From positions 53,286 through 117,285 of the forward strand of contig CAZTQA010000002.1 in NCBI GenBank assembly GCA_964615205.1: DNA of 64,000 bases, given 5' to 3'. How positions within the stretch are numbered: the first letter of the stretch is position 1; every line of letters begins with the position of its first letter. The notes beneath the pieces were generated by a model that did no database searches, was not told the DNA's origin, and saw nothing but the letters and a program-made list of their open reading frames with translations. Below are positions 3-54,960 of this stretch, piece after piece. This stretch comes from an uncultured Candidatus Saccharibacteria bacterium. GTDB lineage: Bacteria > Patescibacteriota > Minisyncoccia > Minisyncoccales > JAGMDC01. Both the position numbers and the translations under genes were made by a program.

Positions 3-1712
3 TTACCCTTTTAGCATCTGATTTATTTTAGCTCGAGTAGAAGGTCCCACAAATCCAGTGGCTTGTTTTAAATCTAATGGTTCTAATATCTCTGAAGAAA
101 ACTTTTCTTGAAAGCGGATAACCGCTTTTTGAGTTAATGAAAGAAAATTGCCTGTAATTAATCCTTCCGGGTAAATTTCTTCCCCCTGATTTTTTAAAAA
201 TTCTTGCAGACAACGAACCTCCTCATTGTTCTGAATCCCAAAATAAAGATTATTATTTAGAGATTGGCAGTATACTTGGTTTCTTTGAGCTAAAATTGAA
301 TCTATCTTAGCTTGAATTTCAGCAATTTTGGCTTTTAATTCTGCAATACGGGCCAAAAGCTTTTCTTGCTCCTCTTCCTCTTTCTGTTGAGGCGTCTTTT
401 CAACTGTTGATACAGTAAAACTGTATCTGTGGCCGCTTTCCTCTCCATTAAATCCGATTTTCTTGGACTGAGCCAAGGGCATAATAGTTAAAGAAACATT
501 CTCATCATTAAAATCCTCTACATAAAGAATAGCCTGATCGTTTCCGTCAAATTCAATAAAACCAATACTTAATTCTCCGTTAATATCTTCTACGATATAA
601 GGGATGTGAAAATAGGCCTGGGAATTATTCTCAAATTCTATTTTTAAAACATCCTTGCCTCCGATTATTTTATGCCAATTGCCACTCCAGTCCTTTACGA
701 TATTACTGATGGAAAAAGTGGTTTCTCCATATTTAGGAATAAGAATGATTTTGGGAGAAATACGCAAATTACTTAAATTTTCATTTGAATAACAATATTT
801 TTCCCCAACAGAACAGTCATTAATTAAAAGAGCAATAACCCAATCGCTGAAAATTTGATTAAAATCTTCTTCAAATCCGTTTTCATCAAGGGCATATTCT
901 ATTGAAGAAATACCTACTTTGGATGAAGTCAAGGAATCCACTAAAATTTCTATCCCATACTGTTCTACTAAGTATTGGGTAAAAAGATTAACCACTGCGT
1001 AATCTGCTTTTTCATTAAACCATTCTGTCAAAGAATCACTGGGTGAATTCAAAAAATTTCTTACCCGGCTGGCTAAGTTGCTGTTATCGTACTTTTTATC
1101 ATAGCCCAAAAAGGTTGATGTATAATCAGCTCTGGCTTCATTGAGCCAAACTTCTTCAGAGACCCCGTGAACATTATCCTTTTGGTTGAAGGTTATCATG
1201 TGCATAAATTCATGAGCTAAATAACCTTTAAGGTTGGGACTATTAATGTGATTAAGATTAATATACAGTATTTCCCTTTCGTTAGAAGTAGGCATTAATA
1301 TCTTCTCGTATTCATCCCTAGTGTTAAAATATCCACCTACATCTTCAACCATTTGGTGGAATAAGATTGTAATATGCTCGTCATTATCTATTCCTGTTTT
1401 CCATTCTATTCCGAAAGTGGGAGTAAGAGTAGGATAGATATGCTCTTCAAATTCTTTAGATAATTCATCTAATTTTTTATTTATGTCTATTTTCTGGATA
1501 TCGCTCAAACTATTCCAATATTCATCCTCAAAATAAAAATAAAGCTGGGAGCTTTTCTCTCTTAAAGTAGCTGAAATCTCTTTTCTTCCTTCAGAATCAT
1601 AAGAAGAATCCACAAAAAAATCAGTCTTTTGACCGACATAATCAGCAGAAACAGAAAAAGGCAGGATAATAAAAAAAGCCCCTATTAATAATGTTTTTAT
1701 TCTGCTATTCAT
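3..1712 (-). CDS. Secreted zinc metallopeptidase (HExxH gluzincin-type) with C-terminal peptidoglycan-binding (PG_binding_1-like) domain
   Basis: N-terminal signal peptide; HEFMH motif with a downstream Glu; coiled-coil segment; C-terminal segment 'LQEFLKNQGEEIYPEGLITGNFLSLTQKAVIRFQEKF' typical of PG-binding domains; stop TAA at 3-5. Confidence 0.6.
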   Translation of the reverse strand: MNSRIKTLLIGAFFIILPFSVSADYVGQKTDFFVDSSYDSEGRKEISATLREKSSQLYFYFEDEYWNSLSDIQKIDINKKLDELSKEFEEHIYPTLTPTFGIEWKTGIDNDEHITILFHQMVEDVGGYFNTRDEYEKILMPTSNEREILYINLNHINSPNLKGYLAHEFMHMITFNQKDNVHGVSEEVWLNEARADYTSTFLGYDKKYDNSNLASRVRNFLNSPSDSLTEWFNEKADYAVVNLFTQYLVEQYGIEILVDSLTSSKVGISSIEYALDENGFEEDFNQIFSDWVIALLINDCSVGEKYCYSNENLSNLRISPKIILIPKYGETTFSISNIVKDWSGNWHKIIGGKDVLKIEFENNSQAYFHIPYIVEDINGELSIGFIEFDGNDQAILYVEDFNDENVSLTIMPLAQSKKIGFNGEESGHRYSFTVSTVEKTPQQKEEEEQEKLLARIAELKAKIAEIQAKIDSILAQRNQVYCQSLNNNLYFGIQNNEEVRCLQEFLKNQGEEIYPEGLITGNFLSLTQKAVIRFQEKFSSEILEPLDLKQATGFVGPSTRAKINQMLKG

Positions 1713-1714
1713 CT

Positions 1715-2578
1715 TTATTGATTTTTAATTTGTTCTTGAAGCTGCTGGATTAACTGTGTTATTAAAACAATAATCTGCTGTTGGATTTCTTTGATTTTTT
1801 GTTTTAATTCTTCAATTGTCATTTCTTCCTTTTCCTCTTCCTCTTCTTTTTCCTCACCCTCTTCTTCCTCACCTATTTCTGAAACAACTGAAACATTAAT
1901 CCCCTCTCCGGGTTCTTCAATATTATTCCACCAGTCTGTAGCTCTTGTCTTAATGTTATAATCTCCCTCTTCCGGACTCTCCCAAACATATTCCCAAGTA
2001 AAACCGGTTTCAATACTTTCTTTGGGTTCTGCAGTTAACCAATTTTCTCCATTATTAAAAATAATTTCCACTTTTTGAACCGAGGAACCGCCTGTATCTG
2101 TAACTTGACCTTGAATAATAAAATCCTGGCCAACTAAAATTTCTTGGTCCTTTTCTAAATTAGTTACAGAAGAAACCGGAGCTTCGTCGTCTACATTTTC
2201 TTCTAATTCTGTCACATAACAGCGAACAACATTGGAAATATCAGAACTGCCGTCATCGTTTACAGCTTTCATAGCAAAAAAAACAGTCCTATCGTCGGGC
2301 AGTCCAGAAACTATAGCTTGGGTGGTTTCAGCTTCCCAGTTTTGGGAAAATTCTGTTGCCTGGCTATAATTTGAGGAATTAATATTAGCCAATGAATATT
2401 TCACTTCCCAACTCGTGGGACTGCCGCTCGGAATACCCCAGCGAAGCCAGACACCGTTGCTGACTTTGTCCTCAACGCACTGTAGATTTGTAATAGCATT
2501 AGGAGCTGCAGCTGAAACAAAATTAAGAGAAATAAAAATTCCCGCAATTATTATTGACGTGAGTATTATCTTTTTCAT
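1715..2578 (-). CDS. Secreted fibronectin-III-like / Ig-like protein with poly-Glu linker and C-terminal coiled coil
   Basis: signal peptide; beta-rich N-domain; E-rich low-complexity region; heptad-like C-terminus; starts 3 nt after the stop of the upstream gene. Confidence 0.45.
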   Translation of the reverse strand: MKKIILTSIIIAGIFISLNFVSAAAPNAITNLQCVEDKVSNGVWLRWGIPSGSPTSWEVKYSLANINSSNYSQATEFSQNWEAETTQAIVSGLPDDRTVFFAMKAVNDDGSSDISNVVRCYVTELEENVDDEAPVSSVTNLEKDQEILVGQDFIIQGQVTDTGGSSVQKVEIIFNNGENWLTAEPKESIETGFTWEYVWESPEEGDYNIKTRATDWWNNIEEPGEGINVSVVSEIGEEEEGEEKEEEEEKEEMTIEELKQKIKEIQQQIIVLITQLIQQLQEQIKNQ

Positions 2579-2610
2579 TTATTAATTATACAATAATCAA
2601 AAAAACTCTG

Positions 2611-2639
2611 CAAATCAAAAACCGCCCCTTTCGGGACGG
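2611..2639 (-). terminator. Intrinsic terminator (hairpin ccgcccc..gggacgg followed by U-run in minus sense)
   Basis: GC hairpin at 2622-2639; minus-sense T-tract from 2611-2621. Confidence 0.55.
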
Positions 2640-2670
2640 ATATTTGATTCCTCACAAGGAAAGGAAAATG

Positions 2671-5580
2671 TTACAAGTTAATGGTGATTGCGTTAGCTTC
2701 TGATTGAATGCTCCAATTTGATCCGCCAAACCCAGCATAACCGCTTGTTACAGTAACATCTGTATAAGCGTTTATGTACCATTTCTGGCTCAAATCAACT
2801 GTTCCCCAATCAGAATCGGTAAAGTCAACCCTTAATTCAATGGTTTTAGGAACTCCAATTTCAACAGTTAGATTGGTTCCAATACCAGAGAAAGCAATAG
2901 TTCCATCTGACTGACTAAGAGTTCTGGTAGTAGTAAGCTCTGTTCCATCTCCATCGTAAAGCTTGAACAATGTTGCGTCTGTGGTTCCAGTAATAGCAGT
3001 TGGTATTCCACTGTCAGTAGTAAAGGTTATAGCTGTAATAACAGCGTTTGCCAGATTGGCATCCATATTAGCAACATCCCATCTACCTACTACTGTATTA
3101 CTTGAAGGACTAACAGTTCCAGAAGGAGAATCTGATGCCTTGGTTATCTCTACCACTTTAGTGTCTAACTGGAATGTACCTCCGCTGTACGGACTGCTGA
3201 TAGCAAAATCAATAGCGGCACTGGCATCTGCATCTGTTCCGCTTTCAATACCAGTTAAGGTTAAGTTTGCCGTAGCTGCTACAGTTAAGTGGAAATCAGC
3301 AACATCACTAGTGCTACTAGGGTTACCCACTAAAAGAATATTTCTGTAAACGTTCTTTTCAAAACGAATATCAGTATCCCATGTATCAGAATCAAAAGTA
3401 AATACACCACCTGACTCTGAAACTGAATCAGTTAAAGGAGTGGTTCCATCATCAGCAAAAATCCTTAAAGCGCTAAGCTTACCAGTAGATGATGGCGTAA
3501 TAACTAAATCCTTTAATTTCATATCCTCTCTGGTAGTTCTAATCTTCAAAGCGCCAAAAACAACATTTGCGCTTGGAGTTAACACACCTTGATTGTAATG
3601 AGTTAAGGTTTTATCAGTGCTCGCAGCGCTGGTAAATGTTCCAGCAGCGTAAATCTTGATATTGGTACTAGCTACATCAGTAGCTGAGGTAATGGCTTCT
3701 CCAGATGACAAACCGGTTGCAGAATAACCGCTGAAAGTAATGGTTATTACATCATCATTAGCATCCAGGTTATCAGTAATACCCCTAACAGCTAATTTCT
3801 TGGTTGTTCCAGCAGGAACAGTCCAAGATAAAGAATATTCTTCTCCAGGATCAGCAGTCTCGGCATTTACAGTCAGTGTACTGGTAGAAACTGCGCTATA
3901 TCCATCACTGGTTACTTCATAAAGACCAACAGAACTTAAGTAATTAGTACCAGCAATATCAGGAGTACCAGCAAACAGAACATTGATGGTATCAAATATT
4001 ACAGCCTCTCCGGTTGCCTTTACATCAAATACAGCTAATGTTTGTGGAGATGTTGACTGAATCATAAAGGCATTTTGCCCTTGAGGATGATCAGCAGACA
4101 TTGCAACTGATATAGAACCAGTTCCAATAGTAACAGTATTAGCAGTGGTTGTTCCAGTGCTTGAAACATTTACACCAGAAGTAGCTCCCTTACCAATAAT
4201 AGCTCCGTCAGCAGCCACAGCCATTTTAATGGTGTTTCCGCTTCCGTTAACAATATCAGCTATTAATTCAAAGCTTTGGGAATAACCTTTAGTTAAGCTT
4301 ACTGGTGAAGTCAGATTAAAGGTAACTTTGTCATTACTTCCTAAGGTTCCAGCAGCTGTTACTGCATCTCCGCCGATTTTTCTAACTTTGAGATTAGAAA
4401 TATCAGAAGCAGAAATGGTTCCTGTGTTAGTGAATGTCATCTGATTAATAGTGACATCTTCATTAGAACCAGCAGAAACAGTGAATTTTTCTAACACAAT
4501 CTCTTTCTCTCCAATCTTGGCAGTATCCTTTGGAAGTGAACTGTATTCAGCTACAGTCAAAGTTCCAAGAGAACCAGCCGGCACAACTGTAAACACATTA
4601 CCTTTGACTGGAAAGTCACCAGTAAAGGTGGCTCCGCTTATTGCTGAAGCAGAATCAATACCCATTTGGACAGTACTCATTGTTGTTCCAGCAGCTGCAA
4701 TATTAACAGCAACACTTATCGTCCTGCTTCCTCCTTGAGGAATGGACAATTGAGGAACAATAACAAAAGTTGCTTGTCCGCCCACCAAATTCTTTTCAGT
4801 GGCTACCTCAATATTGTTTTCGTCAAGAAGCTTGACTTTAGCAATAGTAGTGGTATTGGTTTCAGCAGTTCCGTAGTTCTTTACAGTAAGACCGCTGATA
4901 GTGGTAGCTTCATCCTCACTGCCGTAAATAACGAATTTGGTTACTGTGTTAATAGCAGAACCTTTCATTACATTGGCAGATAAAGGTGTTTCTTTGGAAA
5001 GCACCACGCTTAATGGCTCAACTCCCTCCTCTTCCTCTTCCTCTTCTTCTTCCTCCTCTTCTTCTTCCTCCTCTTCTTCTTCCTCCTCAGCATCAGCTAA
5101 TAATTCGTTTAACTTTTCAATAGTAGTGTCACCGACATAACCGGTTCCAGAAGTTAAATTCCAAGGAGCCAATACATCTTCTTCATATAGCTCTTGGAAA
5201 TCAATAACCGCTGCTTTGGTCAAAGGACCAAAATAGTCAGTTTCGCTTCCTGGAGAACCAGCCCCGGTTTCAGCTACTTGTGTTCTAGAATCGCTATTTA
5301 AAACGATCTGTAAACATTCAACGTCATCGCCGGACATTCCTTGACTTAAGTGTCGGTCAAAAGCGGTGATGGAACAGCCAGAAACAGATGGAACAGTAGC
5401 GCCTTCCAATTCAGCTAACTGATTTTGAAGTTGGGTTAATTGAGATAATAAAGCATCAATTTGAACCTGAAGTTCAGCAGCAGTTAATGCTTGAGCTGGA
5501 GCAACGGCTACACTCATCATCATAACCGCGCAAGCCAAAGTAGTAGTACCGGCAACAATTTTTCTAATTAATTTAGACAT
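2671..5580 (-). CDS. Large S-layer-like cell-surface protein: signal peptide, coiled coil, PG-binding domain, poly-Glu linker, long Thr/Ser/Gly-rich beta domain
   Basis: signal peptide; 'DVECLQIVLN...GPLTKAAVIDFQ' PG_binding_1-like segment; run of about 22 Glu; T/S/G/V-rich remainder; rho-independent terminator immediately 3' of the gene. Confidence 0.55.
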   Translation of the reverse strand: MSKLIRKIVAGTTTLACAVMMMSVAVAPAQALTAAELQVQIDALLSQLTQLQNQLAELEGATVPSVSGCSITAFDRHLSQGMSGDDVECLQIVLNSDSRTQVAETGAGSPGSETDYFGPLTKAAVIDFQELYEEDVLAPWNLTSGTGYVGDTTIEKLNELLADAEEEEEEEEEEEEEEEEEEEEEGVEPLSVVLSKETPLSANVMKGSAINTVTKFVIYGSEDEATTISGLTVKNYGTAETNTTTIAKVKLLDENNIEVATEKNLVGGQATFVIVPQLSIPQGGSRTISVAVNIAAAGTTMSTVQMGIDSASAISGATFTGDFPVKGNVFTVVPAGSLGTLTVAEYSSLPKDTAKIGEKEIVLEKFTVSAGSNEDVTINQMTFTNTGTISASDISNLKVRKIGGDAVTAAGTLGSNDKVTFNLTSPVSLTKGYSQSFELIADIVNGSGNTIKMAVAADGAIIGKGATSGVNVSSTGTTTANTVTIGTGSISVAMSADHPQGQNAFMIQSTSPQTLAVFDVKATGEAVIFDTINVLFAGTPDIAGTNYLSSVGLYEVTSDGYSAVSTSTLTVNAETADPGEEYSLSWTVPAGTTKKLAVRGITDNLDANDDVITITFSGYSATGLSSGEAITSATDVASTNIKIYAAGTFTSAASTDKTLTHYNQGVLTPSANVVFGALKIRTTREDMKLKDLVITPSSTGKLSALRIFADDGTTPLTDSVSESGGVFTFDSDTWDTDIRFEKNVYRNILLVGNPSSTSDVADFHLTVAATANLTLTGIESGTDADASAAIDFAISSPYSGGTFQLDTKVVEITKASDSPSGTVSPSSNTVVGRWDVANMDANLANAVITAITFTTDSGIPTAITGTTDATLFKLYDGDGTELTTTRTLSQSDGTIAFSGIGTNLTVEIGVPKTIELRVDFTDSDWGTVDLSQKWYINAYTDVTVTSGYAGFGGSNWSIQSEANAITINL

Positions 5581-5805: not shown

Positions 5806-6552
5806 TTAATAACCTAAAATCAAGATTTTTTCAAGGGCTTCCTGATAATTGCCTTCCTCAAACAGTTCTTTGACTTGGTCAGCTAATTCTTGCTGCATCT
5901 GGCTCAATTCCCTGCCCTCTAAATCTTTGAGTTCCCTTTCCACTAAAACCTTGTAATAATTATTGACTGAATCTTCTAATTCTTGTGTGTCAATCTTAGT
6001 AGCTAAAATTTCCTCTGCTATTTCTTTCTTCTCCTGGATGTCTTCTACTTTATTTTTAACTTCCGCGAACATATCAGAATTATTTTCAGCAAGAGCAACT
6101 TTCTTTATGGCTTCAGCTGTTTCTTTAACGCTTTTTTCCACTTCTTCCACTGCGGGAGCCAAGTTTCTGCCTTTATTTCCTTCGGCTATTTGCACTAATT
6201 CATTAAGCTTGTCCTGAGTAATCTCCATTTGAACTCTGGGCTTTTCTTCCTCTGAAGCTAAGCTTATTTTAGCTTTCTCTCCCATTCTCTTCACTGAATA
6301 AAGCATATCTCCAGGCAAAGAATCCTGACTAAAGCTAAAAGTACCCAACAAAAGGCAAAAACAAAAAGCAGTTACTAAAGCTGGTTTTAAAAAGGGCCTT
6401 ATCTCAAAAACTGAAACTAATTGGGCTATAAAAGACTGTTTTTGTTCTTGATTTTCAGATAAAATCCTGTTTTTAGCCAAAACAACCCAGTCTTCTCTGG
6501 GTTCAATATCCTGAATTTGTCTTAATTTTTGAATAAGCTCTTTTTCGGTCAT
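5806..6552 (-). CDS. Putative anti-sigma factor (single-pass membrane protein, extracytoplasmic coiled-coil domain)
   Basis: short cytoplasmic N-terminus, one TM helix, long charged coiled-coil ectodomain; lies directly downstream of the ECF sigma gene in the same orientation. Confidence 0.5.
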   Translation of the reverse strand: MTEKELIQKLRQIQDIEPREDWVVLAKNRILSENQEQKQSFIAQLVSVFEIRPFLKPALVTAFCFCLLLGTFSFSQDSLPGDMLYSVKRMGEKAKISLASEEEKPRVQMEITQDKLNELVQIAEGNKGRNLAPAVEEVEKSVKETAEAIKKVALAENNSDMFAEVKNKVEDIQEKKEIAEEILATKIDTQELEDSVNNYYKVLVERELKDLEGRELSQMQQELADQVKELFEEGNYQEALEKILILGY

Positions 6553-6612: not shown

Positions 6613-7107
6613 CTAAGCCAGTTCTTTTTTAAGGGCTTTCAATCCCCTGTGCAGCATAATCCTAATATTTCCTTCTGTTTTGTCCATAACTTCAGCTATT
6701 TCTCTAATGGGCATATCTTCAATATAATGGCAGAAAACCACATCTTGATACTCTGGCTTTATCTTAGATAAAGCTAACTTTATTTGTTCAAAATCTGATT
6801 TAGAAAAAACCTGTTCTTCTAAATTCTCCCTGTCTTCCAATTCCGGGCAATCATCAACTGAAACTGTCTTAATTTTGTTTTTTTCCCTATAATGGTCAGC
6901 TACCATATTTCTAGCTATCTGAAAAATAAAGGCCTGGGGATTTTTTATGTCTTGTTTTGAATTTAAGCTATGCCAAAAACGGGTAAAAACCTCTGAACAA
7001 AGATCTTCAGCTGTTTCTGAAGAATCCACTTTTAAAAGCACAAATCTATAGACCTTGGCAATATAACTATCATATATTTGACTGAATTTTTGGCTTATAC
7101 TCTCCAT
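6613..7107 (-). CDS. ECF-family RNA polymerase sigma-70 factor
   Basis: region 2 ('FTRFWHS...IARNMVADHYR') and region 4 HTH ('IREIAEVMDKTEGNIRIMLHRGLKALK') motifs. Confidence 0.85.
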   Translation of the reverse strand: MESISQKFSQIYDSYIAKVYRFVLLKVDSSETAEDLCSEVFTRFWHSLNSKQDIKNPQAFIFQIARNMVADHYREKNKIKTVSVDDCPELEDRENLEEQVFSKSDFEQIKLALSKIKPEYQDVVFCHYIEDMPIREIAEVMDKTEGNIRIMLHRGLKALKKELA

Positions 7108-7722: not shown

Positions 7723-7795
7723 GGTTAAGTAATAAAAAAGCCGCTTCTATTTATAATACTAATAAAAACAGCTCCGTCAACCTGTGGATAATTAA

Positions 7796-7819
7796 GTAAA
7801 CTCACGATCGTGAGATTAC
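7796..7819. repeat. 24-bp near-perfect palindrome GTAAACTCACGATCGTGAGATTAC (copy 1 of 3), preceded by TGTGGATAA (7783-7791)
   Basis: read directly; abuts the stop of the ComEA/LTD gene; about 75 bp upstream of the start of the 7195..7722 regulator. Confidence 0.7.
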
Positions 7820-10800
7820 CTATCGTATTGGTTTGACAAAGTAAATAGAGTAATGACCCGGGAGATAAACGATTTTGTCGAAACCCAAAGAAATGCTCTG
7901 TCGGAAGCGCTCAAATGACTGACTAAAGATTTCTTCACCGTTAGAGTTTAAACCCATAACACCGCCGCCAGAACCAAGATAAGTATAAATATTCCCTTGG
8001 GAGTCAACAACTAAACTGTCTAAAGGATTGCTTAGCAATCTTTTCTCCCAAACAACTTTTCCGGTTGAAACGCTGACAGCATAAAGAACTCCGTAAACAG
8101 AACCAACCGGGCCCCAAACCGGATGGCGAGTGGCATAAACAACTTCTTCATCTGGGCTCAAAGCCCTAGGAAAAAGACCGTCGTAAGCAAGAGTCCAGAG
8201 TATATCCCCTTCTGAATTCAAAGCATGAAGATATTTGGAACGAATAAAGATTTTATTGTCTTGAGAAATAATAGGATAACTTAAATGTTCGGCTAATCTG
8301 TGAAGTTCTTCAAATTCTGTCTGCCATTTTTCTGTTCCGTCAGAATTAAAAGCCCAAAGCTTATTTTTATGGCTTACATAAACAGTTCCATCCGGTCCCA
8401 CAGAAGGAGAACTAATTTCATCGTCTATTTCTCTGCCAAAAGATTTTTTCCATAATTCCTGGCCTTGATTATCTAAAGCAAAAAGCACATGGTCATAGAC
8501 GTCATCCTCTTTCAAAAAAGTGCTGAAATAAACCACGCCCTCATCATCAACCGCTGGAGAAGTAGTATTAAACATATAATCAATTTCTTTTTTCCACATA
8601 AATCTGCCCGAAGAATCAACTGCGATTAATCCAGTTCCAGACATAAAATAAACTGTACCATCTGGACTGATAGCCGGAGAACTCCTAAGCATGCCCACAT
8701 CTGCTTCGTAAAACCATTCCTTATTCCCTTGAGTATCAAAAGTGTAAATTCCTGTTTTAAGCTCCACCCTTGCCGGAACATAAACCCTGTCGTTCGTAGC
8801 TACTACCAAACCAAAATAATCTCTATCCTCTTTTCTGCCAGCGAATATTCCTGAATCAATATCTTCACTATCGGGCCCTTCAAACCGGCTATAGCCGGAC
8901 CGTTGAGCGTTACCCCCAAACATTTTCCAGGGACTTTGGAAAAAATCCTCTTTATAGAAACTATTTTCTTGTTTGGGAGTCCCAAAAATTGAGTTTCCAT
9001 TAGCATCCTTACCATTAAATATTATCTGATTGTTATCCTGCCACTCATTCAAGCCAATCCTTTCCATAGAAATATAATCCGGTCCAGCTTTACCAGCCAG
9101 CCAAAGACCGTCTTGCGAACAAGTAGTAGAATCAATTAAATTATCATTCTGGTCAAAAAGCCATAGAACTTCACAACTATTATTACCCAATCCATTGCCA
9201 AAAGAACCGGTCCAGTCAGCGGAAATATCAGAAACAGCATTATCGTCTGTGCGTTCTATCAAATAAAAACCGTCTTCAGGAATAGTGGTTGTTCCTAACC
9301 CCTCAATAAAAGAAATGTCCGGCCCATTGTCTGAAGACACTAATTTCCAGCCGGAAATATCTATTTCTTTATCAGTATTGTTATAAAGCTCAATCCATTC
9401 ATCAAAACCAGATGCTTTGGTCCCCATCCAGGCAACTTCGTTTATTAAAACATCTTGCTTGTCCGCCGTAGCTTCAGCGGAGGCGGATTCTTCCTCTTCC
9501 CGATCTTCTTCATTCTCCTGATTCCCTTGGCTCTCTTCATTCTCTTGCTCTCCTGGGTTTCCTCCCCCATTTTCCTCTTCTTGGTTTTTGCTCGTCTCTA
9601 CTGGATTAGTAATATTAATTTTACTTTTAAATTCCGACAAATAATTACTTTTTCCGTTTTCTCTAACTCTAGCTATAATATCTGCCTGGCCTTGAAAATC
9701 TTGATTTTCAATTTTTAATCTAAATTTATTTTCAAACGAAGTGCCAAAGAAAACTTCTTCAATATAGTAAATGGAAGACTGCCAATTATTATCCTCGTCA
9801 CAATCAGAGTAGCAAATAGAAGGGAAAGGACTGCCGGTATCAATGGAAATCTTCACATCATAAACGACAAGATGAAGATTGGAAACAGAAAAAATAACTT
9901 CAATTTCCTTGTTTACCGGGTTTTCTTCTGGATAATCAAGTATAATCTCAGGAGAAGGAGTAGAGGAAGAACTAGAACTAGAACTAGAACTAGAACTAGA
10001 ACTAGAATCATCTTTAGGACCAACGTCATTTTCGACATAAGCGCAATCCTGGTCTATTATTTTTTGCAAGGTTATTTCACCGATTCCGCTCACCCTTATC
10101 AGTTCATAAAGAGAAGAAAAAGGTCTTCCATCTATTATCCTTTGAGCAATTACTGGTCCAACGCCTATTATTTTCTGCAAATCCTCTTTAGATGCAGTAT
10201 TAATATTTACAAGACAGATATCTGTTTCTTCTTCGTCTAATTTTTTTTCAACCTCCTCTTCTTCAATTTCTTCTTCAATTTCTTCTTCAATTTCTTTCTC
10301 TTTAATTTCCTCCTGATCCACTTGATCTTCTTGATTTTCTGGTTCTTGATCCTCTTGGTTCTCTTGATCCCCTATCTCCTCATTCTCTTGCTCTTCTTGA
10401 TTTTTTCGCCCTTCTATGTCAGAAGAAAATGGTTCTGAAACTTGAGCTCCAAAATCAGAAAATATATCAGCTATATTTTTAAAATCATCAACCGTACCCG
10501 ATATTTCATTTTCTATGCTTTTTCTAATCTTTCCAAAAAAAGAAGCCGGCTCCTCAAAGGGATAAGCCGGCACCGGCTCTGAAAAAATTACTTCCACTTT
10601 TGAAGAATCATCCCAGACAAACCCTCCGGTGTAAAGTTCATTCACCCCGCCCGTTATCTTTACAATAAATGGTGAAAGCTTAGTATTTCCTCTCTCAAGC
10701 CATTCTTCTATATCCCAAGGAGATCTTCCTAGCCACATAATACTGGAAGTTCCTTTTAACGGCTCTACTTCTTCAGGACAATAAAATTCTTCAACTATAT

Positions 10801-11326
10801 TTGATTTGTCATTGCCTAAATAACGATAATTAATAAGGTAATGAAATTTTGGCTCTTGAACATTCTTTTTATAAGAAATATATTTAAATTTTAATGGCCC
10901 GTTAGCTATTTTTAATTCATTTTGTGAAAGCCAATCTTTAACTATCTGAACAGCTTTCTCAACTGTCTCTTTTTCTATTTTATCTATAATAGAAGAAATG
11001 TCGTGTTTTAAGATTAAAGAGGCCCCAACTTTAATGATTTTTTCAAGGTATTCTTTAGGAATTTCTACAAAACAATAAGACAGTTCTTTTTTCTGGATTC
11101 CGCTTCTGACCAAAAATAAAGCCGCCTGTTTTTCTGGAGAGGAAAAATCCGGAGAGGTAGTCATATTTATCCATTCATCTACTAATTTATGCTGGCTAGA
11201 ATTCAAAATATTGATAGCCTTTGTTTTTTCTAATTCGTATTCTTCTGAATAACATAAATTTGGCACAACTAAAAAACCTATTACGCAAAATAACATAAAA
11301 AAGCTTAAAAATTTTCTTTTCGTCAT
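7820..11326 (-). CDS. Giant secreted multidomain protein: ComEA-type helix-hairpin-helix DNA-binding module, lamin-tail domain (LTD), C-terminal PQQ-like beta-propeller, acidic and poly-Ser linkers
   Basis: signal peptide; 'NINTASKEDLQKIIGVGPVIAQRIIDGRPFSSLYELIRVSGIGEITLQKI' matches the ComEA HhH pattern; 'VLINEVAWMGTKASGFDEWIELYNNTDKEIDISGWKL' matches the LTD pattern; repeated 'DGTVYF/GTVYV...W' propeller blades; poly-Ser from (AGAACT)n. Confidence 0.65.
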   Translation of the reverse strand: MTKRKFLSFFMLFCVIGFLVVPNLCYSEEYELEKTKAINILNSSQHKLVDEWINMTTSPDFSSPEKQAALFLVRSGIQKKELSYCFVEIPKEYLEKIIKVGASLILKHDISSIIDKIEKETVEKAVQIVKDWLSQNELKIANGPLKFKYISYKKNVQEPKFHYLINYRYLGNDKSNIVEEFYCPEEVEPLKGTSSIMWLGRSPWDIEEWLERGNTKLSPFIVKITGGVNELYTGGFVWDDSSKVEVIFSEPVPAYPFEEPASFFGKIRKSIENEISGTVDDFKNIADIFSDFGAQVSEPFSSDIEGRKNQEEQENEEIGDQENQEDQEPENQEDQVDQEEIKEKEIEEEIEEEIEEEEVEKKLDEEETDICLVNINTASKEDLQKIIGVGPVIAQRIIDGRPFSSLYELIRVSGIGEITLQKIIDQDCAYVENDVGPKDDSSSSSSSSSSSSSSSTPSPEIILDYPEENPVNKEIEVIFSVSNLHLVVYDVKISIDTGSPFPSICYSDCDEDNNWQSSIYYIEEVFFGTSFENKFRLKIENQDFQGQADIIARVRENGKSNYLSEFKSKINITNPVETSKNQEEENGGGNPGEQENEESQGNQENEEDREEEESASAEATADKQDVLINEVAWMGTKASGFDEWIELYNNTDKEIDISGWKLVSSDNGPDISFIEGLGTTTIPEDGFYLIERTDDNAVSDISADWTGSFGNGLGNNSCEVLWLFDQNDNLIDSTTCSQDGLWLAGKAGPDYISMERIGLNEWQDNNQIIFNGKDANGNSIFGTPKQENSFYKEDFFQSPWKMFGGNAQRSGYSRFEGPDSEDIDSGIFAGRKEDRDYFGLVVATNDRVYVPARVELKTGIYTFDTQGNKEWFYEADVGMLRSSPAISPDGTVYFMSGTGLIAVDSSGRFMWKKEIDYMFNTTSPAVDDEGVVYFSTFLKEDDVYDHVLFALDNQGQELWKKSFGREIDDEISSPSVGPDGTVYVSHKNKLWAFNSDGTEKWQTEFEELHRLAEHLSYPIISQDNKIFIRSKYLHALNSEGDILWTLAYDGLFPRALSPDEEVVYATRHPVWGPVGSVYGVLYAVSVSTGKVVWEKRLLSNPLDSLVVDSQGNIYTYLGSGGGVMGLNSNGEEIFSQSFERFRQSISLGFDKIVYLPGHYSIYFVKPIR
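9968..10003. repeat. Hexanucleotide microsatellite (AGAACT)6 encoding the poly-Ser tract inside the 7820..11326 CDS
   Basis: six perfect tandem units read directly. Confidence 0.8.
10259..10294. repeat. 12-bp tandem repeat (TTCTTCAATTTC)x3 encoding (EEIE)n inside the 7820..11326 CDS
   Basis: three perfect units read directly. Confidence 0.8.
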
Positions 11327-11933: not shown

Positions 11934-11989
11934 TATTTAATTTTACAACCACCCTCTAACTTTTCAACCCTTCCCCTGTGGATAACTAA

Positions 11990-12013
11990 GTAATCTCACG
12001 ATCGTGAGATTAC
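11990..12013. repeat. 24-bp perfect palindrome GTAATCTCACGATCGTGAGATTAC (copy 2), preceded by TGTGGATAA (11977-11985)
   Basis: read directly; 3 nt from the stop of the PaaX-like gene; about 57 bp upstream of the start of the 11331..11933 gene. Confidence 0.7.
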
Positions 12014-12016
12014 TTT

Positions 12017-12565
12017 TTATAGTAATTTAAAAATCTTTTCCAAATGTAATTCATTATCTATAAAATCCAATGTACCGTAGCGAACATATTTTCTTAAGTC
12101 AAAAAACTCAATAATAAAATCTAATTCATCTTCGCATTTATAGGGAAAAACAAAGACGCTTTTTTGCAGTTCGTAAAAACCTAATTTTTTAAGCTTATCC
12201 CTCAAAGCGTCTCTCCCTCTTCTTAATTTCTCTGGAATATCAAATATAACTATTCTCCATTTACCGTCCCAATTATCTCTTCTAATTTTCATCTTTTCAA
12301 AATGAAAATTCAAAGCTTTCAATTTACCTTTCTTTGTCAAAACCAAAGTACTACTCTTATCGGAATTCTCTTTAAAATCAACTAATTTTGATCCATAGAG
12401 TTTTCTTATTTCTTCGTTGAGTTTTCTTTGATTGATTAGTTTCCATTCTCTAGCTGTTTCCTTTAATATCTTAATCTGCCCTCTGGACGTATAGGTAAAA
12501 TCTAAAGCCAAACCACTTAATAAAAGAATTATGATCTTTTGTTTATTGGAAGATAACTCAGACAT
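12017..12565 (-). CDS. Minimal PaaX-family-like transcriptional regulator (N-terminal wHTH plus C-terminal Cas2-like ferredoxin-fold domain)
   Basis: N-terminal 'IIILLLSGLA...LTKKGKL' winged-helix pattern; C-terminal 'RIVIFDIPEKLRRGRDALRDKLKKLGFYELQKSVFVFP' matches the PaaX_C/Cas2-like fold signature; flanked on both sides by the 24-bp palindrome. Confidence 0.5.
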   Translation of the reverse strand: MSELSSNKQKIIILLLSGLALDFTYTSRGQIKILKETAREWKLINQRKLNEEIRKLYGSKLVDFKENSDKSSTLVLTKKGKLKALNFHFEKMKIRRDNWDGKWRIVIFDIPEKLRRGRDALRDKLKKLGFYELQKSVFVFPYKCEDELDFIIEFFDLRKYVRYGTLDFIDNELHLEKIFKLL

Positions 12566-12594: not shown

Positions 12595-12618
12595 GTAAAC
12601 TCACGATCGTGAGATTAC
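12595..12618. repeat. 24-bp palindrome GTAAACTCACGATCGTGAGATTAC (copy 3)
   Basis: read directly; 30 bp upstream of the PaaX-like start codon (12565). Confidence 0.7.
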
Positions 12619-22487: not shown

Positions 22488-23825
22488 TTAATATTTTAGG
22501 AATTTGAGTTTTTGATTTTGTCTCTGATTAAGATGCCGAACCAAATATACCAGAACTAAATAATAGACTATTACCCAAAGCCAATGCATATTATTTATAG
22601 CCACAAAAGCCACAGGCAATTGAGAAAAAAAATCAATTGTTTTCACAATATAGGTTAAGAAAAACCAGTTTGGTAAAGAAAAAATCCAACCTAAAAACTG
22701 CCAAAATATGCCTACTAAACCCGAAACAAGACCAAAAATCATAATAAAGGGCAACAAGGGCACAATTAAGACATTGGCAATTGGCGAAACTAAAGAGACA
22801 TAACCGAAATTATAGATTAAGATGGGTAAAGTAAAAACATAAGCTGAAAAAGTCATAGCCAATATGTTTCTAACAAATTCCAAAGGAATTTTTTTAAGCC
22901 TGTGCTGAAAAAAAGGCATTAAATGAATTATGCCTAAGGTGGCTAAAAAAGAAAGCTGAAATCCAACGTCATAACGCAAAAGCAAAGGATTGTAGAAAAG
23001 CATTAAAGCCGCAGCTAAAACCAGGGCCCTGTCTGATTTGTTCATTCTGCCGGTCTTTTCAGCCAACAGAAACAAACCACCCATAATTCCTGCCCTCACA
23101 GCTGAAGCGGGAGCGCCGATCATAATAATATAAAGAAATAAAACAACAATGGCAAAATAAAAGGCCTGACTTTTCCACAAGCCCAATGCCATACCTAACC
23201 ACATCAAAATACCTGCCAGCAAAACAATATGCAGCCCGGAAACACAGGTAATATGCCGGGTGCCGGTAATATTAAGTTTTTCTTTATACTCTTCTGAAAT
23301 CTGCTTTTTATCCCCTAAAATAATGGCTCCTAAGATAGCTGATTGGGGAGGCGAAATATTTTCGTAAAGGGATTTTCTTAATTTGCTTTTAAACCCCAAA
23401 ATCAAAGAATAAAAATTGAGGGAGGCTGAGCCCCCCTCAATTTTTTTAACTTGGGGGAAATAAATTATGGAATAGATGCCGTCTTTAGATAAATATCCTT
23501 GATAATTAAAATCTTCAAAAATTTCAGGCGTTTCCAATTCTCCTTTAATTTCTAATCTATCTCCATAATTGTATTCAGGAAATCTATATGTAAAAACTAA
23601 AATTTTTCCTTCTCCTGCTTCTAAAATTAGCTGTGTATGTTTCTCCCTTACATCCGGTTCTTGGGAAATTCTGCCTGTTAATATTATTGTCTCTCCTGTA
23701 TCGTTATATTTTCTTAAAGAATTATCCGGAATATCTGTTTTAATTGGAAAATTAAAAAAGGAATTCAAAAAAATTCCTAAAATAAAAAGCAAGCAAAGAA
23801 AGAAAACAATTTGAGATAGAGTCAC
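22488..23825 (-). CDS. comEC: ComEC/Rec2 DNA-internalisation channel (competence domain only, no metallo-beta-lactamase domain)
   Basis: multi-TM; 'TRHITCVSGLHIVLLAGIL' matches the ComEC signature; N-terminal OB/DUF4131-like region; GTG start overlapping the nrdG stop (GTGA). Confidence 0.75.
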   Translation of the reverse strand: MTLSQIVFFLCLLFILGIFLNSFFNFPIKTDIPDNSLRKYNDTGETIILTGRISQEPDVREKHTQLILEAGEGKILVFTYRFPEYNYGDRLEIKGELETPEIFEDFNYQGYLSKDGIYSIIYFPQVKKIEGGSASLNFYSLILGFKSKLRKSLYENISPPQSAILGAIILGDKKQISEEYKEKLNITGTRHITCVSGLHIVLLAGILMWLGMALGLWKSQAFYFAIVVLFLYIIMIGAPASAVRAGIMGGLFLLAEKTGRMNKSDRALVLAAALMLFYNPLLLRYDVGFQLSFLATLGIIHLMPFFQHRLKKIPLEFVRNILAMTFSAYVFTLPILIYNFGYVSLVSPIANVLIVPLLPFIMIFGLVSGLVGIFWQFLGWIFSLPNWFFLTYIVKTIDFFSQLPVAFVAINNMHWLWVIVYYLVLVYLVRHLNQRQNQKLKFLKY

Positions 23826-24517
23826 CTTAACTTACATAATTTAAATTTGGGTTTTATCTCCTCTACCACCTCTTTTATCTCATTTTCTTTCAAAACAGGA
23901 AGTTTTAGTATTTCAGGATTTAGAATGGGTTTTTGAGAATTAAATTCCTGCAAAAAATATTTTACATTTTCCACAGCAATCCAATCTGCCAGATCTTGTA
24001 TATCTTCTTTAGTTAGTCCGGGAGCAACAGTTGTCCTGAATTCAAAATCAACCTTACCCTTTTTTAAGATATCAATGCTCTTGTCTATTTTTTTTAAATC
24101 AATTTTTTTTCCGGCATAAAAAGAATATTTTTCTTTGGGAGCTTTTACATCCATAGCCACATAATCAATTAATTTAAGCTGGATTAATTTTTGAAGCATC
24201 TCCGGATTAAAACCGTTGGTGTCTAACTTAATTAAAAAACCCATAACCTTTATTTTTTTTACAAAACCAGGAAGTTCTTTGTAAATAGTGGGTTCCCCTC
24301 CGCAGATTACCGTCCCCTCAAGCATTTTCTGCCTTTCTTTTAGAAAGTCAAAAAAATCTTTTTCTGAAATCTTGGGCTGTTTTTTTATTTCTTCGGGCAA
24401 AACCAGTTCCCGGGAATAGCAAAAAGGACAGCGAAAATTGCATCCAGTTAAAAAAACCGTGGCTGATAGTTTGCCAGGGTAATCTATTAAGCTTAATTTT
24501 TGGATTCCTCCGATCAT
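23822..24517 (-). CDS. nrdG: Anaerobic ribonucleotide reductase activating protein (radical SAM)
   Basis: 'GCNFRCPFC' CxxxCxxC cluster motif; translationally coupled to nrdD. Confidence 0.75.
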   Translation of the reverse strand: MIGGIQKLSLIDYPGKLSATVFLTGCNFRCPFCYSRELVLPEEIKKQPKISEKDFFDFLKERQKMLEGTVICGGEPTIYKELPGFVKKIKVMGFLIKLDTNGFNPEMLQKLIQLKLIDYVAMDVKAPKEKYSFYAGKKIDLKKIDKSIDILKKGKVDFEFRTTVAPGLTKEDIQDLADWIAVENVKYFLQEFNSQKPILNPEILKLPVLKENEIKEVVEEIKPKFKLCKLR

Positions 24518-26622
24518 AGTGCCTTAACTTTGAATTCTTTTCTTTCTCTAAATTCCTGCTGTTTGCCGCGATTCCATTGCTGAACCGGCCTCAAATAACC
24601 CACTACTCGAGAATAAACTTCGCAAGGCTGTTTAACCAAGCATTTGGGACATTCAAAATGTTCACCGCTTAAATATCCGTGAACCGGACAAATAGAAAAA
24701 GTAGGACTAATAGTGATATATGGAAGATGAAACTTTTCAAAAACTTTTCTCACCAATGCCTTAACTGTTTCCACATTAGAAATCCTTTCTCCTAAGAATA
24801 AATGTTCTACTGTGCCTCCGGTATACTTACATTGAAGTTCGTCTTGGAGTTTTAAGGCCTCAAAAGCATCATTAGTATAATTAACCGGCAACTGACTGGA
24901 ATTGGTATAATAAGGATTTTCTTTTACTCCGGCCGTAATAATATCCGGGTATTTCTCTTTGTCTTTAAGGGCAAAACGGTAAGCTGTGCTTTCAGCCGGA
25001 GTGGCTTCCAAGTTATAAATGTTGTTGGTTTCTTCCTGATACTTAATCAACTTTTGACGCATAAAATCCATTATTTCCAGAGCAAACTTTTTTCCTCTGA
25101 TAGAAGCAATATTCTCTCCCAAGAAATTCAAAAGAGCTTCATTCATGCCCACTAATCCTATAGTAGAAAAATGATTAGCAAAATAATTTCCTCTGGCTTT
25201 TTTTACGCCTGACAAGTAAAACCTGGAATAAGGATAAAGTCCCTTTCCAATTAAATCCTCTATGGCTTTTCTTTTAATCTCCAAGCTATCCCTGGCTAAA
25301 TCCATCATTTTTTCTAATCTTTCAAAAAATTCCTTTTTAGTCTTAGAAACATATCCCAGGCGCGGAAGATTAATGGTAACAACACCTATACTTCCTGTAA
25401 GCGACCCACTTCCAAAGAGACCACCACCACCACGGTTGTAAAGGTCTTTTAAATCCAAACGAAGCCGGCAACACATCGAGCGCACGTCATCAGGTTTCAT
25501 TTCTGAATTAATATAATTGGCAAAATAATTAATTCCGTATTTAGCCGAGGCTTCAAAAATTAAATCGTAATTGGGGTCCTGCCATGGAAAATCTTTAGTG
25601 ATATTAATGGTCGGAATGGGAAAATGAAATGGACGGGAAGAACGATCCCCTTCCAACATAGTTTCATAAAGAGCTTTATTAAAAAGTTTCATTTCTTCCT
25701 CAAACTCACCGTAATTTTCTTTTTGGGGTTTTCCTCCAATAATAACCGGCTGATTAGCAAAAACAGAAGAAGGTTTCAAATCCAAAGTAATATTAGAAAA
25801 AGGACACTGGAACCCTACTCGAGTGGGTACAGCCATATTAAATAAAAATTCCTGCAACGCCTGCTTGACTTGACTAAAGTTTAAATTGTCATAACGGATA
25901 AAGGGAGCTAGTAAAGTATCAAAATTGGAAAAAGCCACTGCGCCAGCGCATTCTCCCTGAAGAGTATATAAAAAATTAACCGTCTGGCCTAAAGCAGCCC
26001 TGAAATGCTTGGCTGGTTTGGTTTCTACTTTTCCTGGTACGCCTCGAAAACCTTTTAACAAAAGATCATACAAGTCCCAGCCCATACAATAACAGGAAAG
26101 AGTGTCTAAATTATGAAGATGCAAATCAGCTGATTCATTGGCTTCCCTTATTTCCTGAGAATAAATTTTGTTAAGCCAGTATCTTTTAATAATATATGTG
26201 ACGCCATAGTGGTTTAATCCCTGCAAAGAAAAAGCCATATTAGCGTTTTCCTGCACTTCCCAGTCCAGTTTTTCCAAATACTGGTCAATTCTGTCCACAG
26301 CTTCTTCGCTTACAGCAATGGCCTCCCTGATTCTTCTTCTCTGCTCGCGGTAAAGAATATACGCTTTGGCAGTTTCCACTAAATCTTCCATAATTAAAAC
26401 CTCTTCCACAATATTTTGAACCTGTTCCACATTGGGAATCTCATCTTTCTTAAATCTGCGGTTTAAAATTTTAGCTACCCGATCTGAAACTTTTTTAGAT
26501 TTCTTTCCGTCGCCCTGGCCAGTGGAAGTAATGGCTTTATAAACAGCCTTGGTTATCTTTTCTTGGTCAAAATCCACTATTGTTTCGTCTCTCTTTTCAA
26601 TTTTAGTAATATGGTTTTTCAT
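24514..26622 (-). CDS. nrdD: Anaerobic ribonucleoside-triphosphate reductase (class III RNR)
   Basis: N-terminal ATP-cone; C-terminal Zn ribbon 'CPVHGYLSGEHFECPKC'; glycyl-radical motif 'RVVGYL'. Confidence 0.9.
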   Translation of the reverse strand: MKNHITKIEKRDETIVDFDQEKITKAVYKAITSTGQGDGKKSKKVSDRVAKILNRRFKKDEIPNVEQVQNIVEEVLIMEDLVETAKAYILYREQRRRIREAIAVSEEAVDRIDQYLEKLDWEVQENANMAFSLQGLNHYGVTYIIKRYWLNKIYSQEIREANESADLHLHNLDTLSCYCMGWDLYDLLLKGFRGVPGKVETKPAKHFRAALGQTVNFLYTLQGECAGAVAFSNFDTLLAPFIRYDNLNFSQVKQALQEFLFNMAVPTRVGFQCPFSNITLDLKPSSVFANQPVIIGGKPQKENYGEFEEEMKLFNKALYETMLEGDRSSRPFHFPIPTINITKDFPWQDPNYDLIFEASAKYGINYFANYINSEMKPDDVRSMCCRLRLDLKDLYNRGGGGLFGSGSLTGSIGVVTINLPRLGYVSKTKKEFFERLEKMMDLARDSLEIKRKAIEDLIGKGLYPYSRFYLSGVKKARGNYFANHFSTIGLVGMNEALLNFLGENIASIRGKKFALEIMDFMRQKLIKYQEETNNIYNLEATPAESTAYRFALKDKEKYPDIITAGVKENPYYTNSSQLPVNYTNDAFEALKLQDELQCKYTGGTVEHLFLGERISNVETVKALVRKVFEKFHLPYITISPTFSICPVHGYLSGEHFECPKCLVKQPCEVYSRVVGYLRPVQQWNRGKQQEFRERKEFKVKAL

Positions 26623-32771: not shown

Positions 32772-32808
32772 TTTTGATTTTTGATTATTTTAGTGTAGGT
32801 TGACTACG

Positions 32809-33753
32809 TCAACCTGTCCAAAAGTACATCATAATGCTAAAGTCTGTCAAATTAACTATACCATCTTTATTTTGGTCAGCACAGGTATTGGATTTTCCCC
32901 ACCAATAAAGCAAAATGCTGAAATCAACCATATTGACTTTGTTGTCATGATTAAGATCAACTCCTGAACAAGGATGGGCTTCCATATAAAAACTTAATTC
33001 ATTGGAAAATTCACTCACCAAACCTTGAGGAGAAACAACTTTGGCTTTAACTGAATAATTACCTTCTTTGCTTAAAACACTTGAATCAAAAGAATAAAGC
33101 CATTTTCCTTTCTCGTCGGCTTGAACGGTTTTAGAAATATTGGCTAAGGAATTAATAAAAACAGTCATTTCAGATTCGGACGCGCTATAACCAAAGATAT
33201 CCAAATCTCCCCCCTGGTAAATATTATTTGCGTTTAGTTCAATAGTGGGCGGGAAAAATATGTTTGAGAAAGTAGTTGTAGTATCTCTATTGAGAGAAAT
33301 AGTAAAATTTAAAGTGGGTGATTTTCTATTTTCTTCATCTTCTGCATATAAACCAAACTGCCAAACGCCTACCGGAATTCCAGTTAATTTCAAAGAAAAA
33401 TTTCCTGAAGAGTCAGCTAATCCAGTTTTAGCCACCACATTGTTTCTCATAACAGCAATAAAAGCATTGGGGTAAGCTGCTCCTTTGAACACAACATTGG
33501 CATAATAGGTTATTGTTCCGCTAACGCTCCCGCCTCCAGAAGGCGGAGGCGTTGGTGCGCCGCCCTCAACAGTAGCTGAAACACTCATCCCGCTTTCAAC
33601 TGGCTGGGCTTGAATTTTTTGACTAAAAACAAAAATAGTAAAGAAAACTAAAAATAATAAAAAAACGGTTCTTATGGATAAAAAAAACCGCCAAAAGGAA
33701 AAACTTTTTTTATAATTCAAAAAATTGTTTGTTTTTTTGTTTAAAGGAAACAT
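32809..33753 (-). CDS. Secreted dockerin-containing protein (carboxypeptidase-regulatory-like beta-sandwich domains plus a C-terminal type-I dockerin)
   Basis: signal anchor; two canonical Ca-binding dockerin repeats 'DLNHDNKVNMVDFSILL' and 'DQNKDGIVNLTDFSIMM'. Confidence 0.7.
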   Translation of the reverse strand: MFPLNKKTNNFLNYKKSFSFWRFFLSIRTVFLLFLVFFTIFVFSQKIQAQPVESGMSVSATVEGGAPTPPPSGGGSVSGTITYYANVVFKGAAYPNAFIAVMRNNVVAKTGLADSSGNFSLKLTGIPVGVWQFGLYAEDEENRKSPTLNFTISLNRDTTTTFSNIFFPPTIELNANNIYQGGDLDIFGYSASESEMTVFINSLANISKTVQADEKGKWLYSFDSSVLSKEGNYSVKAKVVSPQGLVSEFSNELSFYMEAHPCSGVDLNHDNKVNMVDFSILLYWWGKSNTCADQNKDGIVNLTDFSIMMYFWTG

Positions 33754-33761
33754 TCATTATT

Positions 33762-54959: not shown

Positions 54960-54960
54960 T

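Follow-up and report, generated by a model that had tools for sequence, protein, structure and literature searches.

A putative surface protein with a variable head and a ComEA-type helix-hairpin-helix module from an ultrasmall Patescibacteria bacterium

Whether a protein with a ComEA-type helix-hairpin-helix (HhH) module captures DNA for the ComEC channel was the question raised by the gene at 7820..11326 (minus strand, ATG start, 1168 aa; the target in the following) of contig CAZTQA010000002.1 from an uncultured Candidatus Saccharibacteria bacterium. The analysed DNA, 64,000 nucleotides in its whole length, is referred to as the window. An earlier note on it had proposed the target as a candidate DNA-capture receptor for ComEC. 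As judged from its sequence, the gene product is a modular surface protein, predicted to be exported, of an ultrasmall bacterium of the Patescibacteria or candidate phyla radiation (CPR). We lean towards the reading that it is a Sec-exported recognition or adhesion protein, retained at the surface by its N-terminal module (N-module) and ending in a variable head, in which the HhH adds the binding of double-stranded DNA (dsDNA) near the cell surface.

The determined architecture of the target was N-module, HhH, an Ig-like domain ('mid'), lamin-tail domain (LTD) and propeller (Table 1). The three domains named in the note were all recovered above the Pfam gathering cut-offs in the hidden Markov model (HMM) scan: HHH_3 (PF12836, residues 372-424) with 50.9 bits against 27, LTD (PF00932, residues 620-735) with 56.8 bits against 34.3, and PQQ_2 (PF13360, residues ~860-1130) with 67.4 bits against 27.6. 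The acidic and poly-Ser linkers described there were present as well, and the isoelectric point (pI) of the whole protein was 4.4. Two parts had been overlooked, a conserved 300-residue N-terminal module and an Ig-like beta-sandwich after the HhH. The Pfam scan of the target gave no catalytic domain and no EEP or OB match, and a nuclease identity was rejected owing to the missing catalytic domain. The exact-sequence look-up of the protein matched no record, and only short fragments came from word-indexed homologue searches that used the N-module or the HhH by itself.

The extracellular location assigned to the target is supported by a single N-terminal hydrophobic segment, no other transmembrane (TM) segment and an invariant Cys pair around the HhH. 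The n-region is basic (MTKRK) and the hydrophobic segment, residues 6-24, is the only one in the protein; residues 1-26 would form a Sec signal peptide or signal anchor, and a conserved Pro together with a small residue at -1 suggests a possible signal peptidase I cleavage near CYS/EE. No C-terminal anchor motif and no LPXTG, SLH or LysM motif was detected in the target. Its N-terminus, MTKRKFLSFFMLFCVIGFLVVPNLCYSEE, contains neither a class III prepilin motif (G/F..E5) nor a lipobox, and its C-terminus, ...YFVKPIR, contains no sorting signal. The readings of the target as a pilin, a sortase substrate or a lipoprotein were rejected on the absence of these motifs.

The part of the target most widely shared by its homologues was residues 1-300, for which no Pfam or NCBIfam family was matched. 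In the AlphaFold2 (AF2) model (pLDDT 78, pTM 0.71) the N-module combines a helical bundle and a ~6-stranded beta-sheet with a hydrophobic helix at its N-terminus and a long helix at its C-terminus, and the Foldseek comparison with the PDB gave no similar fold (best E 0.1, TM ~0.2). When the N-module profile, with the target as the first row of its alignment, was searched against 1.84 billion representative proteins, a family of 297 representative clusters was obtained, of which 221 had E<=1e-30. The match always lay at residues ~2-300 of proteins that were mostly 1100-2150 aa long, and all the named relatives were Patescibacteria (Minisyncoccales, Nealsonbacteria or Paceibacterota). The family is sharply bounded and Patescibacteria-specific, and its 300-residue module constitutes a new domain family that annotation can use. 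The target carries the features of this family: the module at the extreme N-terminus, the LTD, a variable head, and adjoining genes for a DeoR-type helix-turn-helix (HTH) regulator and an extracytoplasmic function (ECF) sigma factor. Pipeline names of the family proteins are 'HhH domain-containing', 'lamin tail domain-containing', 'PQQ-binding-like' and 'ComE-like'; one relative (P0010) is named 'DNA uptake protein ComE-like' by JGI, so part of the ComEA calls made automatically in CPR genomes may refer to these proteins.

The domains of the family were counted with locally built HMMs. Among the members of at least 800 aa (n=125), the LTD was found in 122 (1-4 copies, mode 3), the HhH in 34, the propeller in 36 and mid in 17. 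The corresponding counts in the unbiased set, which comprised the 101 members found only through the N-module, were 99, 16, 28 and 7. Family-wide, the LTD was present in 98% and the HhH in 12-16% of the members. A Pfam scan of 33 sampled members resulted in LTD in 32, PKD in 9, Beta_helix and fn3 in 7 each, HHH_3 in 4, PQQ_2 and BACON_2 in 3 each, Lcl_C and Big_13 in 2 each and GLUG in 1, and no nuclease domain was detected in them. The commonest architecture was the N-module followed by three LTDs and a head, the head being a PKD, beta-helix, fn3, propeller, BACON or dockerin domain. The linker after the N-module had a median length of 149 aa with 24% Asp and Glu (D+E).

The HhH stood ahead of the first LTD in each of 30 cases. 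Members with the HhH had 1.25 LTDs on average and those without it 2.64 (p 3.5e-14), while the total of stalk modules per member was ~3 throughout, with the HhH replacing about 1.4 LTDs. The position before the LTDs, the lower LTD number and the constant module total together indicate that an HhH cassette, with or without mid, substitutes for the membrane-proximal LTDs. About half of the relatives that carry the HhH have mid after it.

The note had described the LTD as a fold recurrent in extracellular nucleases and DNA-binding surface proteins. For DNA binding by the LTD itself the literature gives no experimental basis: the LTD of Xds is dispensable for nuclease activity and membrane association (PMC6746945), and that of ExeM is dispensable for extracellular DNA degradation in vivo, its role being 'not yet elucidated' (PMC6085458). 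The LTD modules of the family (n=299) were acidic in 99% of cases, with a median pI of 4.37 and a median net charge of -11; the corresponding values of the target LTD were 4.05 and -21. This acidity argues against simple electrostatic DNA binding by the LTD, and the LTD was rejected as an electrostatic DNA binder.

The HhH of the target is a genuine ComEA-type (HhH)2. The closest sequence was the T. thermophilus ComEA-related protein 2DUY (E 1.4e-11), on which the AF2 model of residues 365-600 was superimposed with a root-mean-square deviation (rmsd) of 1.0 A, a TM score of 0.82 and 40% identity. The hairpins GVG and GIG are conserved and the GhG hairpins are intact. Cys371 and Cys428 bracket the module and are invariant in every aligned relative, which fits an exported, disulfide-stapled module. 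The net charge of the HhH core (51 aa) is +1, compared with 0 to -2 in the solved ComEA HhH domains, so the core is at least as basic as these. By these features the HhH very probably binds dsDNA.

The likeness to ComEA does not extend to the whole protein. The ComEA proteins of B. subtilis/Geobacillus (8DFK, 8DSS) and T. thermophilus (2DUY) share with the target an HHH_3-type extracytoplasmic (HhH)2 after an N-terminal anchor and a linker. In contrast, the target is 1168 aa long instead of ~65-210 aa, its HhH is internal (369-432/1168) instead of C-terminal, it lacks the oligomerisation domain that stands before the HhH in monoderm ComEA, and the module preceding its HhH matches no ComEA chain or other PDB fold. 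The target also adds the Ig-like domain, LTD and propeller, and its orthologues can dispense with the HhH. The scores with TIGR01259 (comEA; 51.3 bits, cut-off 152.35) and TIGR00426 (ComEA HhH repeat region; 36.3 bits, cut-off 53.1) remained below the cut-offs.

The propeller was determined to be eight-bladed from eight blade motifs at a spacing of 40-50 aa. PQQ-like surface-protein propellers of the PDB were matched down to E 5e-43, and the eight-bladed BamB/PQQ_2 propellers of archaeal and bacterial surface proteins (3HXJ, 8PRA) have the same fold and repeat signature as the target head. Identity with BamB was rejected (TIGR03300, 39.5 bits against 285.2; NF008351, 27.8 against 423): the target is below the equivalog cut-off, no outer membrane is expected, and there is no sign of PQQ cofactor chemistry. 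The reading of the propeller as a PQQ enzyme was also rejected, the equivalog scores being far under the cut-offs.

A ComEC-like protein (DUF4131 + Competence, 445 aa) is encoded at 22488..23825 on the minus strand, 11.2 kb from the target. The note had given this distance and the common strand correctly; however, the strand is uninformative, since 47 of the 50 open reading frames (ORFs) of at least 150 aa lie on the minus strand and the co-orientation of target and comEC therefore means nothing. Nine unrelated genes are situated between comEC and the target, namely GH1, a gene of unknown type, GH42-like, GT2, HtrA, ClpB, Trypsin_2, PaaX-like and the 200-aa membrane protein gene up200. The overlap of comEC is with nrdG (4 nt); nrdD, nrdG and comEC follow each other with 4-nt overlaps (22488..26622), and comEC probably shares a transcript with nrdDG, which encode the anaerobic ribonucleotide reductase. 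As a separate observation, the ComEC encoded here lacks the metallo-beta-lactamase nuclease domain.

In one related locus (L086), comEC is also found ~10 kb upstream in the same backbone, so the distance between target and comEC is inherited synteny. In another (L088, 10 kb upstream read), the ClpB/comEC backbone is replaced by unrelated genes, yet the ~200-aa gene upstream of the family gene and the trio of DeoR, ECF-sigma and DUF5667 genes are retained. Apart from comEC, the window showed no competence or pilus gene, and the conserved cluster contains none; the comparison gave no conserved genetic association of the target with comEC or competence genes. The link to comEC is weak because of the nine intervening unrelated genes, the backbone synteny and the loss in L088, and nothing ties the target specifically to the ComEC channel. 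With an optional HhH, an inherited synteny and a comEC link that is lost in L088, the proposal of a DNA-capture receptor for ComEC was not sustained.

A different association was conserved when the gene neighbourhoods of 11 independent related loci were compared. The DeoR-HTH and ECF-sigma pair adjoined the family gene in all 11, being divergently oriented in L087 and separated by one or two genes in L090 and L092. On the other side, up200 ends 4 nt before the target start; it matches no Pfam family, and a gene of ~175-229 aa occupied its position in most of the related loci. The DUF5667 gene was present by Pfam or tblastn in 9 of the 11; its position held a Pfam-less 241-aa gene in L092, and there was no such gene in L093. 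The predicted topology of the DUF5667 protein is that of an anti-sigma factor. The 569-aa PG_binding_1 protein was 45-53% identical in 5 of the 6 loci compared, and the related loci usually had one or two exported proteins of ~570-650 aa next, often with PG_binding_1. A hydrophobic segment stands at the N-terminus of all the cluster products other than the regulators.

The closest orthologue of the target, P0002 (L085, GCA_049642725.1), has no HhH and is located in the same slot, its N-module being 59% and its ClpB 85% identical to those of the window; P0025 of L092, likewise HhH-less, is in the same slot. The slot was also occupied by three proteins without a recognisable N-module (P0016, P0033, P0036). 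In the four loci with the shared ClpB backbone (L001, L003, L086, L087), the identities were 67-73% for ClpB, 49-61% for HtrA and 41-48% for the ECF sigma factor, compared with 27-31% for the N-module of the target, and the head differed in kind. In these loci, no other part of the target diverges as fast as the N-module, whose identity is far lower than that of the flanking housekeeping genes. An inversion in L087 leaves the up200-target pair together. ClpB itself did not serve as a locus anchor: ~7 of 80 loci collected by it were Patescibacteria and none of them had the target, ClpB being too conserved.

In L090 (10001..16532), two family-type genes stand in tandem before the DeoR-HTH and ECF sigma genes, one HhHx2-PKD-BACON (676 aa) and the other LTD-Beta_helix (1052 aa), which suggests duplication or cassette exchange within the slot. 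Beside the slot of the window, a gene for a PaaX-like regulator with a Cas2-like middle domain lies at 12017..12565, between Trypsin_2 and up200. Other loci have at this position a Y1 transposase, toxin-antitoxin genes or small ORFs, which points to a variable insertion spot.

According to the favoured reading, the protein would leave the cell via Sec and be held at the membrane or wall by its N-module, possibly docked on the co-conserved ~200-aa membrane protein. The polyanionic and poly-Ser linkers with the Ig-type modules (mid, LTD) would form an extended stalk, and the eight-bladed propeller at its end would be a ligand-binding head, which orthologues replace by a beta-helix, PKD, fn3, BACON or dockerin domain. 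Such swapped heads suggest the recognition of, or adhesion to, variable external targets, for example a host surface or matrix. In the target, the disulfide-stapled (HhH)2 and the Ig-like domain would take the membrane-proximal LTD positions, and the HhH most likely gives sequence-independent dsDNA binding close to the cell surface. The gene of the family would occupy the variable slot in a conserved envelope cluster made up of the ~200-aa membrane protein, the slot gene, DeoR-HTH, ECF sigma, DUF5667 and large peptidoglycan-binding proteins, with the adjacent ECF sigma factor as its putative regulator. Since the HhH occurs in a minority of the family, DNA binding would be an accessory property and not the core function. 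Modular Gram-positive adhesins likewise have an Ig-repeat stalk, low-complexity linkers, a variable distal head, fast divergence and domain shuffling; in the target the retention would be N-terminal rather than C-terminal, by a new module.

Several points weigh against this reading. Both the adhesive role and the ligand are what we infer, and the fold of the N-module yields no hint of function. The HhH segment is 55-77% identical across loci, far above the rest of the protein, and up to 5 tandem HhH copies were found in relatives. This conservation and multiplication indicate real selection on the HhH, which could be the main function of the HhH-bearing members. In L092, two prepilin-type (N_methyl) genes lie at 1220..2241, ~2 kb upstream of the HhH-less P0025; they are the only pilus-related neighbour among the 11 loci. 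In addition, ComEA is reported in only some CPR metagenome-assembled genomes and ComEC in most (PMC13293708), which leaves room for a substitute dsDNA receptor.

Such a substitute would be one form of the receptor proposed in the earlier note: a dedicated surface dsDNA receptor that replaces ComEA and captures or ratchets DNA for ComEC. We consider this unlikely. The genuine (HhH)2, its membrane-proximal position in every case, its conservation and multiplication, and the JGI name of P0010 agree with it, as do the absence of a second HhH gene in the 64-kb window and the comEC gene upstream in L086 too. The succession of N-anchor, module, flexible linker and HhH also resembles that of Gram-positive ComEA (TM, oligomerisation domain, linker, HhH) (PMC9747964). 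On the other hand, 84-88% of the family lack the HhH, as does the closest same-slot orthologue, the scores with both ComEA models remained under the cut-offs, and comEC is separated by nine genes and rather overlaps nrdG. In L088 the ClpB/comEC backbone is gone and the ECF cluster stays, no pilus or com gene belongs to the conserved cluster, and the HhH is flanked by polyanionic linkers in a protein of pI 4.4. Furthermore, comEC of Southlakia epibionticum is needed for transformation, not for fitness (PMC10633639). The premise of the note that CPR bacteria depend on DNA and nucleotide scavenging is weakened by this dispensability in the one genetically tested CPR organism. The epibiotic growth of the same organism does require adhesins and type IV pili (PMC10633639).

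A combination of the two accounts seems slightly less likely still. The family would then be a lineage-specific, ECF-sigma-coupled system for recognising a host or the environment in Minisyncoccales/Paceibacteria-type CPR, in which the HhH variants double as the 'missing' ComEA and hold dsDNA for ComEC. If true, the LTD and the (HhH)2 would be functionally analogous polymer-binding stalk modules, with interchangeable heads at one conserved locus.

It is improbable that the family consists of surface-tethered enzymes or nutrient-binding proteins, such as glycan-degrading beta-helix heads or ligand-trapping propellers, whose stalk modules, the HhH included, merely keep extracellular DNA (eDNA) or polysaccharide close to the cell. 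Many members do carry Beta_helix, NosD or pectate-lyase-like heads, glycoside hydrolase and glycosyltransferase genes stand in the nearby backbone, and the LTD is found in the extracellular hydrolases ExeM and Xds (PMC6085458, PMC6746945). Like the target, ExeM of Shewanella and Xds of Vibrio cholerae are exported, associate with the surface, combine an LTD with long unstructured linkers and belong to an eDNA context. Secreted DNases of halophiles, which belong to the DNaseI family, carry either an LTD or an (HhH)2 at the same position, and a bioinformatic study suggested that both are analogous (PMC4486849); the same either-or was seen here at one position of an exported protein. However, the halophile proteins are nucleases, whereas the target has no catalytic domain and the family LTDs are strongly acidic. 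The OB-fold (YhcR/YcgR-like) and EEP nuclease domains of ExeM and Xds are lacking in the target, and membership in ExeM (NF033680) was rejected at 16.7 bits against a cut-off of 1300, the LTD part alone being aligned. The propeller type, PQQ_2/BamB, is non-enzymatic, and the 33 scanned members had no nuclease domain.

That the HhH binds a non-DNA ligand (host protein or glycan) as one more adhesin module is very improbable. In its favour, the HhH motifs of Pasteurellaceae ComE1, a surface protein with a ComEA-type HhH, bind fibronectin (PMC2601033), the HhH is interchangeable with the Ig-type LTD modules of the stalk and its surroundings are acidic. Against it, the GhG hairpins and the sequence are near DNA-binding ComEA (40% identity, rmsd 1.0 A to 2DUY), and ComE1 still binds DNA besides its adhesin role (PMC2601033). 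ComE1 differs from the target in being a small protein of a Gram-negative host-associated bacterium, with neither modular stalk nor head.

The individual domains of the target are known. No earlier description seems to exist of their combination, the N-module, the conserved variable-head locus or the substitution between LTD and HhH, and the literature searches found no paper linking the LTD with CPR. For the question of how uncultivated CPR bacteria recognise and keep hold of their hosts and take up DNA, the locus is a concrete, conserved and easily recognised candidate; a receptor coupled to ComEC finds no support in it. The exchange of LTD and HhH offers a testable hint at what bacterial LTDs do.

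Table 1. Features of the target gene and its cluster in the window (residues refer to the target protein).
Feature	Position	Strand	Basis or remark
Three exported proteins: 969 aa (PG_binding_1, weak), 287 aa (fn3/Big_7), 569 aa (PG_binding_1)	3..5580	minus	
DUF5667 protein, one TM helix (~54-72), external DUF5667 domain	5806..6552	minus	Pfam, hydropathy
ECF-type sigma factor (Sigma70_r2 + r4_2)	6613..7107	minus	Pfam
DeoR-type HTH regulator, 175 aa	7195..7722	minus	directly downstream of target
40-nt element, copy 2	7781..7821	minus	between target stop and DeoR-HTH start, then TTGACG-16-TATTAT
Residues 791-1168 + stop, eight-bladed PQQ_2/BamB-type propeller, distal 'head'	7820..8956	minus	Pfam, PDB
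Residues 620-790, LTD	8957..9469	minus	Pfam
Residues 586-619, second acidic linker, Gly-rich, 38% D+E	9470..9571	minus	composition
Residues 457-585, Ig-like beta-sandwich ('mid'), macroglobulin/CARDB type	9572..9958	minus	AF2, fold comparison
Residues 433-456, poly-Ser linker	9959..10030	minus	composition, repeat scan
Residues 369-432, ComEA-type (HhH)2	10031..10222	minus	Pfam, PDB alignment, AF2
Residues 300-368, polyanionic linker, 51% D+E	10223..10429	minus	composition
Residues 27-294, family-defining N-terminal alpha/beta module	10445..11248	minus	AF2, homologue alignment
Residues 1-26, signal region	11249..11326	minus	hydropathy scan, N-module alignment, family N-termini
up200, 200-aa protein, one N-terminal TM helix, ectodomain ~165 aa	11331..11933	minus	upstream of target
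40-nt element GTAATCTCACGATCGTGAG-N-TTACTTA-N-TTATCCACAGG, copy 1	11975..12015	minus	upstream of TTGAAA-16-TAAAAT and up200 start

The two copies of a common 40-nt element (Table 1) each stand before a promoter-like site, one that of the up200-target pair and the other that of the regulator genes. A third copy, of the palindrome CTCACGATCGTGAG alone, was found at 12600..12613 before the PaaX-like gene; none of the three palindrome copies in the window would be expected by chance. The part TTATCCACAGG is identical to the consensus DnaA box and recurs ~50 nt upstream of the up200-like genes in L001, L085 and L090, and with one mismatch in L091, whereas the palindrome was not conserved at the equivalent position of these four loci. 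In the promoter-like site at 11940..11967, the -10 hexamer TAAAAT ends ~7 nt before the up200 ATG (11933), so the up200-target transcript could be leaderless.

Parts of two linkers of the target are encoded by perfect repeats. The run of 17 Ser in the poly-Ser linker corresponds to the hexanucleotide repeat (AGAACT)x6.7 at 9968..10007, and the EIEE units of the polyanionic linker to the 12-nt tandem repeat (TCTTCTTCAATT)x3.3 at 10257..10296. These in-frame microsatellites are probably young and likely vary the linker length between strains. A function as phase-variation switches was rejected, since repeats with periods of 6 and 12 do not shift the frame and can change only the linker length.

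In the 64 kb of the window as a whole, no tRNA gene and no Rfam family at the gathering threshold was detected. The window has a negative GC skew throughout, and almost all its genes lie on the minus strand. A second cluster of exported orphan proteins is located at 27488..44028; among its members are proteins with cohesin and Big_13 domains (27488..30455) and one with WxLIP_PGBD (33762..34724). Several ORFs of 314-395 aa and two large ones of 1240 aa (37052..40774) and 1050 aa (40876..44028) in this cluster have no Pfam match. In the region 54961..58214, a second ECF-type sigma factor (57636..58214) adjoins an HlyD/MacB-type ABC export system (53024..56871).

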